A DNA stretch of 64,000 nt from an uncultured Gammaproteobacteria bacterium (GCA_964353785.1 CAYGWK010000004.1:22730-86729); one strand, 5' to 3'; numbered from the stretch's first letter, positions 12,745 to 56,545 are shown. The notes: a model not told the origin generated them from the letters alone. Numbers and translations: made by a program.

Positions 12745-12905
12745 GTGGTGTATTGGGCTCGGAAATGAATTTGTTGCTTGGATTTGAGATGGCTGCCCGC
12801 TTAGCGGGCACCAGCTCGCGACTGGGAAATTCGTAACTCAAGTTGTGTTCCGCTTGGGTCGCGGCTTGCCACATAAATCCTGCGCAAAAATTATTTCCTC
12901 GTCCT
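12745..12905. repeat. GC-rich noncoding repeat element, copy 1 (candidate structured RNA)
   Basis: Shares GAAYTTGTTGCTTGG, CRAGTTGTGTTYCG, GGCTTGCCA and AAYCCTGCGCAAAARTTAT blocks with copy 2 at 45340-45510. Confidence 0.5.
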
Positions 12906-13020
12906 GTTTGAAATCCTCACAAAAACCGATACAAAAATTACTCAAAATCTTCTCTTGGTTTTTCTTTAAAAATAGCCAAAATCTTCTTATTTTGATATAC
13001 TTTGATGGCTTTATTGCTAG

Positions 13021-45339: not shown

Positions 45340-45510
45340 GATTTTTTTGTGTTTTGCGACTTAAAGAGTTCGGGTATGAACTTGTTGCTTGGTTTCGTCA
45401 TGGCATCCCCGCACCAATTCTGGTGCGGGGTCGCCCTCGGATTCTGAAATCCGAAAGTCGAGTTGTGTTTCGGAGTCCTCGGGCTTGCCAGGTGAAACCT
45501 GCGCAAAAGT
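45340..45510. repeat. GC-rich noncoding repeat element, copy 2 (candidate structured RNA)
   Basis: Conserved blocks shared with 12745-12905; internal hairpins GCACCAATTCTGGTGC and CGGATTCTGAAATCCG. Confidence 0.5.
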
Positions 45511-45588
45511 TATACCCTCACTCTTCGATCTGATAGTCTGATTCTCTGATCCTCTGAGTTTTCCGAGTTTTCTGATAGAATATTCTAG

Positions 45589-50989: not shown

Positions 50990-51053
50990 CTTGTTACCCA
51001 ATAGGTGTTTACATTAAATTTTGAGGCAGATAGTATCCATTAAGTCTTAACAA
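50990..51053 (+). promoter_or_regulatory. conserved upstream motifs (CTTG-TACCCA-GTTTACATT plus AGTATCCATTAAGTCTTAACAA) before the 51079 gene
   Basis: Second motif is near-identical (21/22) to 56518-56539. Confidence 0.45.
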
Positions 51054-51078
51054 ATGAAGAAATGGTATAATAAGTTGT

Positions 51079-52701
51079 ATGTTTGGCTACCCAACCCAAA
51101 TTTCTCTTATTCCTACCACTGTCGCTCTGGTTAGATTTATCGAGGAACACGGTTTTGTCTCCTGGTATCCTTATTGGTATCTAGGAAACCCATTACATTA
51201 TCTTACTGGTCCAATTTTGCCAGTAATTTGCCTAGTGTTGCATAGGATATTTCCAGCCCTTAATTTCTTTGATATTGTCTACATTTTAATTTTTTTCTCT
51301 TTCATTTTAGGTCCTTTAGGTCTTTTTTTCTTCGTCCGCAAACTTTCCGGCAACTTTTTCTTGTCTCTTGTCTCTTTTCTCTTCTTTCTTTTTCTGCCTT
51401 GGCACTATTTTTCTGGCCTGGTTTTAGATAATGGCAGTCATATTTTAGCCCTAATGGTTCTCCCTTGGGTCCTTTGGTTAAGTCTTTTTGCTTTGGAAAA
51501 GTGGCATAAAGCCTGGGTTATCCTCGCCACGCTCGCGATGGCTTTTGTTATATTAATAGATAGTTTGATAGGGGTTCCTCTGGTGGTGGGACTAGTTCTT
51601 TTTGTATCACTTAAGATACTGAAATCAACTGAAGGCATTGAGATAAAGATTGCTAAAGCACTTTTTTTATTAGTCTTAGGTTGGCTTTTGACCTTCTGGT
51701 GGTTTAGTCCGGGGTACTGGCTGACAATTCTTCAGGCTCCATCCTTAGCCGGGAAGGGGCTTTTAAGTGTTGTAGTTTGGTTAGGAAGACTGCTTTTAAA
51801 CCTAGTTCCCCTGGTTCTGGCGGTTTTTTCCGTTTCTCGATTCAAAAAAATTAAAGATAGAACCTTAATTTTTACTTTAGGTTGGCTTGGGTTTTTTGGT
51901 TTTCTGACTTTGATGAGATTTCTGTCTGACCCGGATTTCTGGCAGGACTGGTCAAGTTACGGAGTAGAGTTGGAGTTAGGGATAGCGATGGCGCTGGGGT
52001 TAATTTTGAACAGATGGAAGTTTTCAGTGTTTCAGAAAATATTCAGCGTTTCTGTGATTCTGGGCTTGGCGGCAGTTTGGGGCTATGCCTTTAGGTGGAC
52101 GCCACTTCTGATTCCCAGGAAAAATATAGAAAACACCGTTGAGTACCGGATTGGCAAACAGCTATCCGAGATTGCTAAGCCCCTTTCGGCAAGCTCAGGG
52201 CAAGCTGGCGAACGAGTTTTTCTTTCAGGCTCAACTGCTTTTTGGTTAAATGCCTTTTTTGACATTCCCCAGGTTCGGGGTGGGAAAGATGAGACTTCGG
52301 TTGAGCCTTTATGGAGACAAGCGGCTTGGGAAATACGAGAGGGCCCTTCGACAAGCTCAGGGCAGGAAAACACGGAAAAATGGCTGAAAACACTGAATGT
52401 TTCTTATTTAGTGGTTCACACCCAAGATTCTGAAGAATATTACCATGATTTTTCCCACCCGGAAAAATTTGAGTCTGCCAAATCGCTTAAAAAGGTTTTT
52501 TCGGATAAAGGGGATGTTGTTTATCGGGTTGAAGGAGTGGTTCCGTCGCTAAAAGAAGAAGAATATAAAGACTGGACAAAACCAATTGGTTGGGGGATAA
52601 GTCTTTTAGCGGTTCTAGTTCTTTTTCTTTTTCCAAAATCTTGGGAATTATTGTCCGCCAAAATGCCTAAATTGGATTTGGGTGGAGAAGAGAATTATTA
52701 A
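51079..52701 (+). CDS. polytopic membrane protein, possible GT-C-type glycosyltransferase
   Basis: ~12 TM helices in the N-terminal 350 aa, soluble C-terminal domain, final TM. Confidence 0.45.
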   Translation: MFGYPTQISLIPTTVALVRFIEEHGFVSWYPYWYLGNPLHYLTGPILPVICLVLHRIFPALNFFDIVYILIFFSFILGPLGLFFFVRKLSGNFFLSLVSFLFFLFLPWHYFSGLVLDNGSHILALMVLPWVLWLSLFALEKWHKAWVILATLAMAFVILIDSLIGVPLVVGLVLFVSLKILKSTEGIEIKIAKALFLLVLGWLLTFWWFSPGYWLTILQAPSLAGKGLLSVVVWLGRLLLNLVPLVLAVFSVSRFKKIKDRTLIFTLGWLGFFGFLTLMRFLSDPDFWQDWSSYGVELELGIAMALGLILNRWKFSVFQKIFSVSVILGLAAVWGYAFRWTPLLIPRKNIENTVEYRIGKQLSEIAKPLSASSGQAGERVFLSGSTAFWLNAFFDIPQVRGGKDETSVEPLWRQAAWEIREGPSTSSGQENTEKWLKTLNVSYLVVHTQDSEEYYHDFSHPEKFESAKSLKKVFSDKGDVVYRVEGVVPSLKEEEYKDWTKPIGWGISLLAVLVLFLFPKSWELLSAKMPKLDLGGEENY

Positions 52702-52831
52702 AAAACCACCAAGGGAGAAATTTTTCGCCCTCTTAAATCCAGGACTATCCTGGAACGGGCACCATAATTGTGGTATAATCCAATTCCGAATTTTGGCTCT
52801 TTGAAATTTTAACCCTTAAAGGAGGCTTAAG

Positions 52832-53677
52832 GTGTTTAAGAAACAAGAGTTAGTTCCACTCAAATACGGAGGCTCGCGGATAAAACTGGCAGTTGAGGTT
52901 GCTCTCTTTGCCGTTTCGGCAATTATTTACACAGCGCTCATGGGAATCCTGGGAGCGATGGCACTCTTAGCGTTCATCTTGATCCATGAAGGCGGTCATG
53001 TTTGGGCCATGGAAAAAGTAGGAGTTCGACTTAAAGGGATTTATTTCCTTCCCCTTCTAGGAGCAGCCGTAATTCCAGAAGGAAACTTTCGTTCCTATAA
53101 AGCCGAATTCTATACCGCCATCATGGGTCCAACAATGGATTTGACATTCGCCTTGATTGCCCTAGTCAGCTACTGGTATACCAGGAGCGTTGTCTTCCCA
53201 ACAATTGCCGCTATGTTTGCCTTCATGGACCTTCTTAACCTTTTGCCAGTTTTACCTCTAGATGGAGGGTTGATGTTCAAGTCAATTACTTTTTCCCTTT
53301 CGCCTAAAATCAAACTCCTCCTCATCGCCCTTGGATTTCTGGCTGTCTTGCTGGTGGTCACCGCGATATTTGTTCTACCCAGCGCTTTCATTCTTCTTCT
53401 CGCCACTGTTACGGGTAGAATCCCTGACTCATGCTTCTCAATTGGTCTAGCCCTATTTGCTGCTTTCCTAATTGGTTGGGCTCTTTTGCAAAGTAAAGCG
53501 CTGGCTCAAGAAGAGAAGATGGTCAAAGAAAGAATGACAAAAGTGGAAACCGCGGTTCATTCGCTTTTGTATACGATGTTAGCGGGAACTCTGCTTTTAG
53601 TCATCACCGCCAGTTTAGTGCTAATCATAGCCAATCCAGAAGGGCTACTAGATTTTGCGAGCCTCCGAATTCCCTAA
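52832..53677 (+). CDS. site-2 protease family (peptidase M50) membrane metalloprotease
   Basis: HExxH (ILIHEGGHVWAM) in a TM helix and LPVLPLDGG (LDG) motif. Confidence 0.75.
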   Translation: MFKKQELVPLKYGGSRIKLAVEVALFAVSAIIYTALMGILGAMALLAFILIHEGGHVWAMEKVGVRLKGIYFLPLLGAAVIPEGNFRSYKAEFYTAIMGPTMDLTFALIALVSYWYTRSVVFPTIAAMFAFMDLLNLLPVLPLDGGLMFKSITFSLSPKIKLLLIALGFLAVLLVVTAIFVLPSAFILLLATVTGRIPDSCFSIGLALFAAFLIGWALLQSKALAQEEKMVKERMTKVETAVHSLLYTMLAGTLLLVITASLVLIIANPEGLLDFASLRIP

Positions 53678-53824
53678 GTGGCCACCTGAGTGGTTTCTAA
53701 ATTTCCAAACCACAAAATGGTGGCCTCTTTCTTTTTTTACCAAATTCAGGAAGTTTATTTGGGAGCAAATAAGTGTTGTGCGGGGGAGCGGAGATTCAAC
53801 ACCCGGTGTTGGTTTCTTGATTTC

Positions 53825-53971
53825 TCATTCCATTTCTTCAATTTTGCTTTCTAACTCATCTACCCTATCTTTTAAGTCTTGAATTGTTCTGTTATTTTCC
53901 AACGGACAGAGATTACTTCCTGCATTAGCGCAGGTTGTACACATTGACCAATCAAAATTGCAATTTGCCAT
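53825..53971 (-). CDS. small Cys-rich peptide (48 aa), hypothetical
   Basis: MANCNFDWSMCTTCANAGSNLCPLENN... with GGTGAG RBS 5 nt upstream; four Cys in the N-terminal half, coiled-coil-like acidic C-terminus; below the ORF-track size cutoff. Confidence 0.3.
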   Translation of the reverse strand: MANCNFDWSMCTTCANAGSNLCPLENNRTIQDLKDRVDELESKIEEME

Positions 53972-54009
53972 TTTTACTCACCGCTTTTTCAAGAGCACAA
54001 AAAAACTCT

Positions 54010-54789
54010 CTATATTTTTTCCACCAAAACATCTTTTATTAAGGCCCTTTCGGTTCCCGAATTTCTGAAACCAACAGTGCCATACTCAAGATTGATAGGG
54101 AAAGGGATCTTGACCACGCGTCCTTCCGGTTCTTCCTTAAATTCAAACATGACTGCTCCATGGGGAATTAACCATTCTCGATTAAAGACACAGTTTTTAT
54201 CTTCATAAAGCTTTATTCCTATAGAATTTTTTTCGCAAGATAGAATAACCCTATACCATTTATCTAAGGCTAATTTTTTAGCAAATTTCAAATTTGTCTC
54301 TTCCGCCTCCCAAGCTCTCCAACCTCCGTTAATTCTTATATGGGGACGGATTCCATTTTCTCCAACTTGTAGCATCACATAGTTAGAAAGATTTATCGCT
54401 CTTGCTACTACACCCAAGCAAGAATTTACGATTTTAAATTCTAAGCTCAGATTATAGTCACTCCAGCTTAGACACTTTGAATAAATGAATCCTGGTTCGG
54501 AATCTGTAATGACAAAACACTTTTGGGGCCTAAGGTACTCAAATTTGCCCTTCCCAAGCCAATCATCCCTATCCTCTCTTTTGGTCAATGGAATAAAATA
54601 GAAGTCCTTGTCTCTAACTCGGAGAAGAATAACCACAAAGAGAGAGGTGGCAGTAATCATTACAGATAAAAAGAGAAGGGTTCTTGGGTCCGCAGCATAC
54701 CTGAAAGCCAAAAAGTATGAAATAAGTGCGGAGATAGCAGTCAAAAGGTCGAATTTATAATTTTTTGTAAAATAAAGTATTCTTTTCAT
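54010..54789 (-). CDS. membrane-anchored protein with C-terminal beta-sandwich (DUF1080/LamG-like) domain
   Basis: Two N-terminal TM helices; C-terminal SLEFKIVNS...NGG...W.RV.L.C..N.I.I.L...NCVF pattern recalled for DUF1080/concanavalin-like folds. Confidence 0.4.
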   Translation of the reverse strand: MKRILYFTKNYKFDLLTAISALISYFLAFRYAADPRTLLFLSVMITATSLFVVILLRVRDKDFYFIPLTKREDRDDWLGKGKFEYLRPQKCFVITDSEPGFIYSKCLSWSDYNLSLEFKIVNSCLGVVARAINLSNYVMLQVGENGIRPHIRINGGWRAWEAEETNLKFAKKLALDKWYRVILSCEKNSIGIKLYEDKNCVFNREWLIPHGAVMFEFKEEPEGRVVKIPFPINLEYGTVGFRNSGTERALIKDVLVEKI

Positions 54790-55346
54790 TTTTTCTCAAT
54801 TTTATGCCTTGATTTCAAGAACTCAGCGGTAAGCGTGGCCACAATCTCATGGGGTTTTTCATCTGCTTTATCTGAACGTAACTGTTCATTGTCTAAATCA
54901 ATAAAATTCTGCGACTTAACATTTCTACTTTTATCACCTATGTAAACGACTGCTATTTTACGCCCATCATTTGTATAACCAAGTTTTGCTTCTACCCAAT
55001 GCTGTTCATCTTCACTTCTATCTTTAATTGGTTGTATTGGGCTATCGAGAGAAATGGTTTTTAATTTATTATCTAATTTCGCTTGGTATGCGATGTGAGC
55101 AAGTCGCCTCAATTCAATTACGTTTCTCTCTAGCTCATGCCTTCTCTTACATATGGGACAAATCCCAAGTTTATAGTTCTCTTCTCTGAACTCTAGAACG
55201 GCTCCACATTCCAAACACATCGGCCCAGTGATTTCGTAAATTTCTTTAACATTTATATCATTCTCACTCACTCTAAAAACAGGTTTCCAAAAAGCGTTGC
55301 GAAACCTAAACCTCTCCTCTTCTAATGGATAGAACCCTTTCTTCAT
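54786..55346 (-). CDS. zinc-ribbon protein, hypothetical
   Basis: CLECG...CPICKRRH zinc ribbon; 4-bp overlap with the downstream gene. Confidence 0.45.
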   Translation of the reverse strand: MKKGFYPLEEERFRFRNAFWKPVFRVSENDINVKEIYEITGPMCLECGAVLEFREENYKLGICPICKRRHELERNVIELRRLAHIAYQAKLDNKLKTISLDSPIQPIKDRSEDEQHWVEAKLGYTNDGRKIAVVYIGDKSRNVKSQNFIDLDNEQLRSDKADEKPHEIVATLTAEFLKSRHKIEKK

Positions 55347-55464
55347 AATACAAAGTAATTTAACTCAATTTTTCTCAACTTCCAGCCAAAGTTTTGCAAC
55401 CCTGGTTAATTGTCAGACTAGCACACGGAGTGCTAAAAATCAATAGCTGGCTTTTTTTGGTTTT

Positions 55465-55473
55465 AGTGATATA
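55465..55473 (+). promoter_or_regulatory. extended -10 promoter element (TGATATAAT)
   Basis: TGnTATAAT 10 nt upstream of the 55483 ATG. Confidence 0.4.
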
Positions 55474-55482
55474 ATTTTTGGC

Positions 55483-56001
55483 ATGAATGAAAGATTATCA
55501 TCTACCGAGTTTTACGATGCGGTTATCGCTATCGTTGGAAAAACTGACGATAGGAAGGGATACATCCAAGAAACACTCATTCCAAAAATGGATGAGCACA
55601 GAGGAAGAGTTCGACCGCAGACTAGAGAGGAGATTGTTAAAAAGTTATTTTCTGCTGACATGACTAAACCAGGGGAGGCAGTAGAGATTATTGAAGAGGC
55701 AGTTAGGGCTAAAAGAAAGTTAACTCCAGAACTTGCTTTAGAGGTGGCGGATGTAATCTATTATACGCTCCAGCCAAACTGTCCAGATTTTGCAAATAAC
55801 CCGGAGCCATTTATAACAGGTTTAGGGATCGATATGGAGACTGCCTACACCCTCTGTATAGTAAAATATGAAGCCAGACTTCTTTGTGATAGTCTTTCAA
55901 ATTTTAAAGAAATAGAAAAGGAAATAATGACTAGATTTTTAGAAAAAGGAAGAGGATTATTGACCGGCTCGCAAGAGAAGAAAGGCAAGAAAGATCATTA
56001 A
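55483..56001 (+). CDS. hypothetical protein
   Basis: 172-aa ORF. Confidence 0.45.
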   Translation: MNERLSSTEFYDAVIAIVGKTDDRKGYIQETLIPKMDEHRGRVRPQTREEIVKKLFSADMTKPGEAVEIIEEAVRAKRKLTPELALEVADVIYYTLQPNCPDFANNPEPFITGLGIDMETAYTLCIVKYEARLLCDSLSNFKEIEKEIMTRFLEKGRGLLTGSQEKKGKKDH

Positions 56002-56295
56002 GATGATATAGACAGTGAGAAGAGCAGTAGTAAACAGGGGAAGCTGACTTTGTTTTTGGGTAGGTGGCGGTGCGCCTGATTCCGGTTTTGCCTCAGAGAT
56101 CTTTTCCTCTATCTCGGGCTTTTTAGCGAAGATATAGTTTAATTCTTCCTTTTTATAATATCTTCGGTTGGTTGGTGAGCGGTGGGCTTTGATGATACCC
56201 CTTTTTTCCCAGCGCCTTAAGGTATCTTTTGAGATTCTTAAAAGTTTGGCAGCTTCACCGATTGAAAGCCAGTCTTGTTGAGTAAGTTCATTCAT
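55957..56295 (-). CDS. excisionase/MerR-type HTH protein with C-terminal TM helix
   Basis: LSIGEAAKLLRISKDTLRRWEKRGII HTH of the excisionase/MerR family, Pro-rich linker, C-terminal hydrophobic helix. Confidence 0.6.
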   Translation of the reverse strand: MNELTQQDWLSIGEAAKLLRISKDTLRRWEKRGIIKAHRSPTNRRYYKKEELNYIFAKKPEIEEKISEAKPESGAPPPTQKQSQLPLFTTALLTVYIILMIFLAFLLLRAGQ

Positions 56296-56458
56296 TTTTG
56301 ATATAGTTCCTCAGGTAATTCTTATTATTACTAAGTATTGCCTAGTATGGTGAGTTTAGACCAATTTGCCAGGTGATACGATATTATACTGTTATTTTTC
56401 CCTTGTCAACTGGAAAAATTTTGTCTCCAAAACCTTAAATTAATCATTATAAATGGCT

Positions 56459-56539
56459 CTTGACAAGCGATACCCACTTGATGTTAACATTTACTCGGGA
56501 GGCTGTTTTTACCCCTTAGTATCCATTAAATCTTAACAA
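56459..56539 (+). promoter_or_regulatory. conserved promoter/operator-like motifs upstream of HTH-GT2 gene B
   Basis: CTTGACAAGCGATACCCACTTGATGTTAACATT and AGTATCCATTAAATCTTAACAA, ending 6 nt before the ATG. Confidence 0.45.
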
Positions 56540-56545
56540 CTGCCA

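Follow-up and report, generated by a model that had tools for sequence, protein, structure and literature searches.

What separates the two paralogous HTH-GT2 (helix-turn-helix and family 2 glycosyltransferase) units of this genome: an inserted element, a multigene system, or something more ordinary? The question is raised by positions 53825-56295 of a 64,000-nucleotide stretch of DNA (assembly GCA_964353785.1, CAYGWK010000004.1:22730-86729), which is called the window at its full length and whose first nucleotide is position 1. A reading made from the sequence alone (the sequence-only reading) had described here a minus-strand block inserted between the two units, encoding a zinc-ribbon protein, a membrane-anchored beta-sandwich protein, a small Cys-rich peptide, and a membrane-tethered excisionase-type HTH protein. 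We consider it fairly probable that the region is a strain-variable slot of independent orphan genes lying beside a conserved regulator module. By this account, its genes do not work as a single system, no mobile element is involved, and the region is fairly ordinary. Its interest lies partly in guarding against over-reading, as what appears to be an excisionase-bearing inserted operon would be a variable slot plus backbone whose parts are independent.

The variable slot and its conserved flanks

Gene calling on the window recovered all five open reading frames (ORFs) of 53825-56295 at the positions given by the sequence-only reading, along with the features that it had placed there. We refer to the genes by the length of their products in residues. 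The 48-residue (53825-53971), 259-residue (54010-54789), 186-residue (54786-55346), and 112-residue (55957-56295) genes do lie on the minus strand, but the 172-residue gene (55483-56001) is on the plus strand, and the description of a minus-strand block holds for the other four only. The 172- and 112-residue genes are convergent and overlap by 45 bp. Beyond the 3' end of the 48-residue gene lies a plus-strand gene (52832-53677) for a 281-residue M50-like membrane metallopeptidase.

A 94%-identical version of the 172-residue protein is encoded by a Shapirobacteria metagenome-assembled genome (MAG; GCA_002793695.1, L003) and by metagenome contigs L004-L012. The 90%-identity cluster of this protein has eight members on at least 13 contigs, and because its only named member is a Candidatus Shapirobacteria MAG, we place the window genome, an ultra-small bacterial one, in the candidate phyla radiation (CPR)/Patescibacteria; judged by this protein, it is Shapirobacteria-like.

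In BLASTN comparisons with L003, L004, L006, and L007, no counterpart of window positions 52730-55357 was found, while both flanks match. The left flank, which is the end of a gene for a 540-residue membrane protein, is 84-94% identical to the relatives up to position 52729. On the right, 55358-56410, which holds the 172- and 112-residue genes and both of their promoters, is 95% identical, and the second HTH-GT2 gene beyond it is 82-88% identical. The replaceable unit is therefore made up of the M50-like gene and the 48-, 259-, and 186-residue genes, a variable segment of ~2.6 kb (52730 to ~55360) that is delimited by BLASTN, junction alignments, and Pfam-annotated gene calls on the relatives. 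The earlier boundaries of the block have to be redrawn at both ends. The variable unit takes in the plus-strand M50-like gene, previously counted with the first paralogous unit, and the 172- and 112-residue genes are not inserted at all but belong to a conserved syntenic backbone (55367-56410). Absence of the block from relatives, which had been offered as a check, is thus borne out for 52730 to ~55360 and not for these two genes.

In the relatives, the slot is filled by a 1.2-kb pair of plus-strand genes that encode an HTH_3/XRE protein (128 residues) and a Peptidase_M78 protein (206 residues), an ImmR/ImmA-type pair that is absent from the window. Neither gene calls nor BLASTN detected an M50-like gene at the slot position in the relatives. 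Both junctions are sharp in the alignments: identity on the left ends after ...GAAATTTTTCGCC (52729), and on the right it picks up again at AATTTTTCTCAACTTCC, ~55367, the start of a conserved intergenic stretch on the plus strand (55367-55482; alignment with L003 and L004) that opens the backbone. The 95%-identity match stops at 56410, exactly at the promoter of the 112-residue gene. In four independent assemblies (L005, L009, L011, and L012), the contig ends within ~50 bp of the right junction, which could reflect alleles that coexist in the population. GC content is 0.35-0.39 over 53.75-56.25 kb compared with 0.41-0.46 on both sides.

Flexible islets, hotspots, and defense islands are strain-variable slots between conserved core genes in bacterial pangenomes. 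The defining trait of an islet, different genes in close relatives at a site whose flanks are conserved, is what we observe here, and lower GC content and orphan cargo add to the likeness. The slot differs from such loci in having no integrase, tRNA, or att repeat and in that only two alleles have been seen. Like the cargo of defense islands, its genes have homologues elsewhere among restriction-modification (R-M), nuclease, NUDIX, MazG, and toxin-antitoxin genes, but no cargo protein matches a known defense family, and many neighbors of the homologues of the 259-residue protein are housekeeping genes.

We propose that the slot, which would sit between an envelope-glycosylation cluster and the conserved two-gene module (172- and 112-residue genes), receives new contents when the conserved flanks recombine homologously, without a dedicated recombinase, and that the three minus-strand genes would be co-transcribed here merely as a result of having landed together. 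If so, the locus is a concrete case in which one cassette has replaced another in a CPR genome that lacks a recognizable recombinase, and its junctions are mapped.

Independence of the cargo genes and competing explanations

The independence of the three minus-strand cargo genes is indicated by a co-occurrence survey that covered 20 loci with homologues of the 259-residue protein, 6 with homologues of the 186-residue protein, and 8 with homologues of the 48-residue protein. No two of the three families were found together in any other surveyed locus. An all-versus-all BLAST of ORFs detected no recurrent neighbor family in the 20 loci of the 259-residue family, whose 134 neighbors represent 97 Pfam families, none present in more than three proteins, and range from R-M, PIN, and resolvase genes to purA, aconitase, AcrB, and LpxK. 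Copies of the 259-residue protein that are 81, 77, and 69% identical have different genes around them, such as HARE-HTH, GIY-YIG, and Clp protease, and neither the 186- nor the 48-residue gene is beside them. Homologues of the 186-residue protein occur after rpoD/dnaG by hypothetical genes, among NUDIX, MazG-like, SLFN-helicase, RadC, and PDDEXK genes, and before HD_4, and no neighbor family is shared across the eight contexts of the 48-residue gene. Because the families never accompany one another elsewhere, the tight 186-259-48 arrangement appears to be specific to this genome.

That arrangement could nonetheless be taken as one co-transcribed, translationally coupled three-gene system, with a role in anti-phage defense or a pathway like those of ribosomally synthesized and post-translationally modified peptides (RiPPs) in which the 48-residue product is the precursor. 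The genes share a strand; the 186- and 259-residue genes overlap by 4 nt (ATGA), in this genome only, so that the coupling signal pointed out by the sequence-only reading is present; and the 48-residue gene follows the stop codon of the 259-residue gene after 38 nt and has a GGTGAG Shine-Dalgarno sequence. Homologues of all three also occur in regions with R-M, nuclease, NUDIX, MazG, or toxin-antitoxin genes. We regard such a system as unlikely, given that the 20 + 6 + 8 homologue loci contain no instance of co-occurrence, that PADLOC gives no match at a meaningful E-value, and that homologues of the 259-residue protein also adjoin the housekeeping genes named above. A near-invariant head in the 48-residue protein with no conserved enzyme neighbor is likewise not what would be expected of a RiPP precursor, and because no modifying-enzyme gene is conserved beside it in the eight contexts, the suggestion of a precursor peptide is unsupported. 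A known defense system was also considered and rejected: PADLOC-DB 2.0 returned nothing meaningful for the block proteins, and type IIG R-M genes lie near homologues of the 259-residue protein in 2-3 of 18 loci. Two further explanations turn on the 112-residue HTH protein. According to one, which we think has a very slim chance of being correct, the block would be left over from, or carried by, an integrated mobile element (prophage, integrative and conjugative element (ICE), or integrative and mobilizable element), and the 112-residue protein would serve that element as excisionase or recombination directionality factor. The protein does pass the NCBIfam "excise" cut-off and match PHROG 66, the GC content of the block is lower, and the alternative allele is an XRE/M78 (ImmR/ImmA-like) pair of a kind typical of ICE and prophage switches. 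However, Pfam scans of the ORFs at 39-64 kb detected no integrase or transposase within ~10 kb of the block in either direction, no direct (att) repeats flank it, and no tRNA is adjacent, the nearest being at 18-20 kb. The HTH gene belongs to the segment that is conserved and syntenic, outside the variable one; the nearest relatives of its product form a large membrane-anchored HTH class and are not Xis proteins; and no viral relatives of the 259-, 186-, and 172-residue proteins were found. The mobile origin that had been read from the excisionase-type HTH is therefore not supported. A phage or plasmid origin, examined separately, was rejected as well: scans of IMG/VR with the 259-, 48-, 172-, and 186-residue proteins gave just coiled-coil matches to the tail of the 48-residue protein, and tblastn with the 259-residue protein found no match among INPHARED phages or PLSDB plasmids. 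According to the other explanation, the M50-like peptidase would free the HTH domain of the 112-residue protein by regulated intramembrane proteolysis to control the divergent HTH-GT2 glycan operon, and the M78/XRE pair would be an alternative protease-based switch in the relatives. The peptidase keeps its HExxH and NxxPxxxxDG motifs, the 112-residue protein has the geometry of a site-2 protease (S2P) substrate (cytoplasmic HTH, flexible linker, and single C-terminal transmembrane (TM) helix), both slot alleles encode a metalloprotease, and a 250-bp divergent promoter region is common to the 112-residue and HTH-GT2 genes. On the other hand, the relatives keep the 112-residue gene nearly unchanged without an M50-like gene, so that the peptidase is not an obligate partner; XRE/M78 pairs, as known from ImmR/ImmA, are self-contained; and the scheme is one that we infer throughout. 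We judge it improbable to nearly the same degree as a mobile element. The mobile-element, three-gene-system, and S2P-release explanations thus all find little support.

Several points also weigh against reading the region as a variable slot of independent genes. The 4-nt overlap and the 38-nt gap fit a real operon and might mark a functional link that is local to this genome. The case for calling the slot a hotspot is thin, only two alleles having been recovered along with a third context for the 48-residue gene in contig L013, and the mechanism of exchange given above is a proposal. An 8-9-bp sequence, AAATTTTTC, adjoins both junctions in the alignments and could be a chance occurrence in AT-rich spacers. 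The functions of the products are ones that we infer, as the 48-, 186-, 259-, and 172-residue proteins have no significant hits in PADLOC, Pfam, NCBIfam, or PHROG; the structural model of the 186-residue protein is of low confidence; and the cytoplasmic location of the 259-residue domain is a prediction from the positive-inside rule.

Products of the slot and of the backbone

Within a variable slot of independent genes, the newest piece is the family of four-Cys coiled-coil micro-proteins to which the 48-residue product belongs. Gene callers often miss ORFs of 48 codons. This one has GGTGAG 5 nt upstream of its ATG and encodes Cys residues at positions 4, 11, 14, and 22 followed by an acidic, heptad-like tail. 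Homologues were found in five metagenome loci and in twelve other protein clusters of 43-74 residues, and to date all are from Patescibacteria-type sequences. Across the family alignment, the first 30 residues hardly vary (MANCNFDWSMCxTCANAGSNLCPLENNRTI), with C4, F6, W8, S9, C11, C14, C22, and PLENNRT fully invariant, and the acidic heptad-repeat tail that comes after this head is variable in length. The reading frame is intact in seven of seven DNA copies, and over the first 30 codons (Nei-Gojobori), the nonsynonymous rate (dN) is 0.03-0.13, the synonymous rate (dS) runs from 0.56 to saturation, and omega is 0.008-0.16 (that is, dN/dS of 0.01-0.16). Because the frame is conserved in the face of saturated synonymous change, the 48-residue ORF is a real and strongly constrained gene of a small family, and the good ribosome-binding site (RBS), four Cys residues, and coiled-coil tail noted by the sequence-only reading are confirmed, as is the conservation that it had proposed to check.

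On a 593-bp contig, L013, a 94%-identical copy of this gene is found whose homology to the window starts at the RBS and ends just past a hairpin after the stop codon, with both flanks unrelated to the window. The hairpin (53796-53812, CAACAC-CGG-GTGTTG), found by a scan for terminator-like structures and in the window/L013 alignment, is short and GC-rich and lies just after the stop codon of the 48-residue gene. A T-rich run follows it on the plus strand, and it could be a candidate terminator of the M50-like gene.

No match in Pfam, NCBIfam, PHROG, or the PDB covers the Cys head of the 48-residue protein. A PDB profile search returned GCN4-like coiled coils that match the tail only, a PADLOC match to SspF (E 0.005) is likewise limited to the coiled coil, and a weak NCBIfam match to the C-terminal region of TFE-alpha (E 0.003) is far under the cut-off. 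The protein resembles small zinc-finger micro-proteins with C4 zinc-knuckle/coiled-coil architecture (DksA/TraR-type proteins and the archaeal TFE zinc ribbon) in having four conserved Cys residues within ~20 residues and a coiled coil. It differs from them in Cys spacing, which is C-x6-C-x2-C-x7-C and not that of two CxxC knuckles. We read it as a putative metal-binding coiled-coil oligomer that is probably a small regulator or binding partner.

Restriction genes are frequent in its surroundings. In four of the eight contexts, a restriction endonuclease (REase) gene lies within two genes of the 48-residue homologue, and in two, it directly precedes it: a type III REase-like gene in L042 (65-1966) and, across a 4-nt gap, a type II IceA-like REase gene in L043 (42-909). 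The homologue in L047 (91-2338) adjoins RE_R_Pab1, and in L041, which is the same as L046 (1992-5156), it lies two genes past a type II R-M pair (DUF6996/6997 REase), with LexA and GIY-YIG genes between. In other contexts, it is 3 kb from a methyltransferase gene (L040) or within an operon of hypothetical genes (L048). This four-of-eight count hints at a possible association with restriction genes. Patescibacterial hosts rely heavily on R-M systems. We can imagine that the 48-residue gene represents an undescribed Patescibacterial micro-protein family that travels as a unit of RBS, ORF, and hairpin and supplies a new restriction- or defense-associated regulator or a DNA-mimic-like modulator, a proposal that we put forward as doubtful.

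Two observations on these contexts are recorded separately. LexA occurs near 48-residue homologues in two loci that were further characterized, and L040 contains on its minus strand (362-1879) a 505-residue ORF whose translation reads as a LexA-like N terminus with an S24 peptidase region, joined to a C terminus that resembles a DNA methyltransferase.

The 259-residue protein belongs to a widespread family without known function, in which proteins from very distant phyla are 40-55% identical. Counting the query, the search gave 135 hits with identities of 42-81% from Patescibacteria, Omnitrophota, Nitrospirota, Acidobacteria, Deltaproteobacteria, Spirochaetia, and WOR-1, and 16 genome loci lie in more than eight phyla; the family alignment has 26 invariant columns. 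An AlphaFold2 model built from a 22-sequence alignment (predicted local distance difference test (pLDDT) 90 and predicted TM-score (pTM) 0.80) begins with two helices (residues 2-31 and 35-58) that form a two-TM hairpin and continues with a 14-strand beta-sandwich. All 298 PDB matches that Foldseek returned for this model at E<=1e-3 are concanavalin A (ConA)-like, among them Bacillus subtilis YesU (1oq1, E 2e-7), the DUF1080-type structures 3s5q and 3imm, carbohydrate-binding module (CBM) 66, C-terminal domains of GH43 enzymes, and VIP36, and against the viral models of BFVD, it matches LamG/ConA-like tail proteins. The two-TM protein with a DUF1080/LamG-type C terminus of the sequence-only reading is therefore upheld.

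Relative to DUF1080/3-keto-disaccharide hydrolases and other ConA-like proteins (1oq1, BDI_2473 3s5q, 3imm, and CBM66 4b1m), the likeness is one of fold (E 2e-7 to 6e-6, probability 1.0; TM-score normalized to the target 0.52-0.73), at 7-15% sequence identity. Searches of Pfam, NCBIfam, PHROG, and PADLOC gave no significant match; the query does not reach PF06439 (DUF1080; 13.2 bits compared with a cut-off of 26.8, E 0.094), and among the matches listed, 5 of 120 homologues have a precomputed PF06439 match. DUF1080 and CBM proteins are typically secreted. The 259-residue protein differs from them in its N-terminal hairpin and in the predicted location of its domain: the net Lys/Arg charge of the family is +3.7 before TM1, +0.3 in the loop, and +2.5 after TM2, and by the positive-inside rule, the beta-sandwich is predicted to face the cytoplasm, which would be unusual for this fold. 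The product may be a membrane-tethered ligand-binding or hydrolase-like beta-sandwich. A literature search for TM-anchored DUF1080 proteins found nothing relevant.

For the 186-residue protein, "zinc ribbon" is partly right at best. Both CxxC pairs claimed earlier are present in this sequence, but in the family (17 hits including the query, 53-68% identity), only three Cys residues, C44, C63, and C66, are invariant, and C47 is found in 4 of 17. This Cys3(4) region would form a knuckle, and the C-terminal half of the protein is better conserved. The AlphaFold2 model from a 17-sequence alignment has a pLDDT of 62 and no Foldseek match at E<=1e-3; PDB profile and single-sequence searches gave nothing significant; and Pfam, NCBIfam, and PHROG contain no significant match. 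The PADLOC match to Cas10a (E 8.5e-4) involves the Cys region only.

In the backbone, the 172-residue protein is weakly MazG/HisE-like, which would make it an all-alpha nucleoside triphosphate pyrophosphatase. This suggestion comes from a match to NCBIfam TIGR03188 below threshold (E 0.012, 15.8 bits compared with a cut-off of 42.7), an hhalign comparison with three MazG-like proteins (E 5e-4, probability 32%), and a motif-like stretch of the translation, EIIEEA...ELALEVADVIYY, that recalls the EExxE...ExxD metal-binding helix pair; Pfam, PHROG, and PADLOC gave no significant match. A perfect extended -10 element, TGATATAAT, at 55467-55475 ends 7 nt before the ATG, and the sequence reads as having no Shine-Dalgarno before the gene. 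This arrangement suggests a promoter at this position and a leaderless mRNA. Gene-wide dS compared with L003 is 0.038.

Divergence is uneven along the backbone. The segment at 55367-55875, which comprises the promoter and first two-thirds of the 172-residue gene, is 98.8% identical to L003 (6 differences in 508 nt), whereas identity is ~92.5% in the region of the 112-residue gene (55875-56410) and 82-94% in the outer flanks. The 98.8% tract may have arisen not long ago by recombination next to the slot, or it may reflect constraint at the nucleotide level.

The 112-residue protein consists of an HTH domain (residues 9-57), a Pro/Lys/Glu-rich linker (residues 58-89), and a strongly hydrophobic TM helix (residues 90-108; Kyte-Doolittle 2.77) that is followed by ~4 residues. 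Its N-terminal domain places it with the minimal winged HTH proteins of the MerR superfamily (excisionase/Xis, HTH_17, and BldC) through matches above cut-offs to MerR PF00376 (E 1.3e-14, 54.1 bits, cut-off 28.2), PF13411 (42.4 bits, cut-off 21.6), and NCBIfam "excise" TIGR01764 (33.3 bits, cut-off 28.8), along with matches to HTH_17 (8e-12) and to PHROG 66, "excisionase and transcriptional regulator" (E 7.8e-12). The match to mad1 HTH in PADLOC (E 4.5e-14) is to a generic HTH. As the MerR_1 match spans positions 2-44 of the 69-position profile, the protein has no dimerization helix or effector region. The sequence-only reading was thus right about an excisionase/MerR-type HTH joined to a C-terminal TM helix, but such tethering turns out not to be unusual. 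An HMMER search of 1.84 billion representatives gave 1822 relatives at E<=1e-3, and among the best 150 of these, a TM segment is predicted downstream of the HTH in 99, and 52 have a single TM segment as a tail anchor and a length of ~100-260 residues. Tail-anchored MerR/excisionase-type HTH proteins are therefore a large uncharacterized class for which the annotation "excisionase" is misleading. A literature search for membrane-anchored MerR/excisionase HTH proteins in CPR found nothing relevant.

Unlike Xis proteins, the 112-residue protein has no recombinase partner. In plan it resembles the membrane one-component regulators ToxR, CadC, and TfoS: as in ToxR and CadC, the DNA-binding domain would be cytoplasmic with a single TM anchor, although the ~4 residues after the TM helix leave no external sensor domain. 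In the relatives, the protein is 91% identical, its gene has the same overlap with the 172-residue gene, and dN/dS compared with L003 is 0.21; no paralogue was found elsewhere in the window. The gene is divergent from the second HTH-GT2 gene, with which it shares a 250-bp promoter region, and a promoter scan located its near-consensus sigma-70-like promoter on the minus strand at 56381-56409 (TTGACA, 17-18 nt, TATAAT/TAATAT). Because its promoter is divergent from HTH-GT2, local regulation of the HTH-GT2 operon is the most economical guess, and the protein may be a local membrane-tethered DNA-binding regulator with the shared divergent region as its likely target.

The wider set of 112-residue relatives includes proteins of quite different construction. 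Some (P0164, 623 residues; P0166, 1015 residues) have 8-12 tandem MerR/HTH_17-like domains in one polypeptide, and others have one or two HTH domains followed by a TM segment and very large extracytoplasmic regions, reaching 3356 residues.

The assignment of the 281-residue slot protein as an M50-like (site-2-protease type) membrane metallopeptidase draws on its match to PF02163 (E 1.5e-11, 44.5 bits compared with a cut-off of 27.2) and on its translation, which carries HEGGH and NLLPVLPLDG as the HExxH and NxxPxxxxDG motifs of Peptidase M50.

Structured and repeated elements nearby

Between the convergent M50-like and 48-residue genes lies a long imperfect inverted repeat (53680-53735; GGCCACC...TGGTTT / AAACCA...GGTGGCC) that is probably a bidirectional terminator. 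An Rfam scan of the window found three tRNAs and no other known RNA.

A GC-rich intergenic element of 157 nt on the plus strand at 45368-45524 has a minimum free energy of -78.2 kcal/mol (z = -8.6 relative to shuffled sequences) and matches no Rfam family. In the relatives, a 92%-identical copy is located between the 112-residue HTH and HTH-GT2 genes (L003 3206-3361, L004 2995-3150, and L005 1322-1477), and a partial copy with the common core GGCTTGCCA...CCTGCGCAAAA is found at window positions 12829-12914. Because the copy in the relatives is at a different place, the element looks transposed, and it resembles a mobile structured element of the miniature inverted-repeat transposable element (MITE) or repetitive extragenic palindromic (REP) kind, or a small RNA.

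A near-identical element of 23-26 nt, TAGTATCCATTAARTCTTAACAA, occurs at 51031-51056 and 56517-56542, immediately ahead of the start codon in both the gene for the 540-residue membrane protein and the second HTH-GT2 gene; chance alone would be expected to give zero matches. The two genes may share it as a regulatory element or for translation initiation. Inside the 540-residue gene, at 52182-52202 and 52344-52364, there are short repeats of the CCTTTCGRCAAGCTCAGGGCA type that are translated in frame as ...SSGQA..., and a CCTTTCGRCAAGCTCAGGGCA-like sequence is also present in the unrelated flank of L013 (400-450). These repeats look like small REP-like insertions, which are common in CPR genomes.

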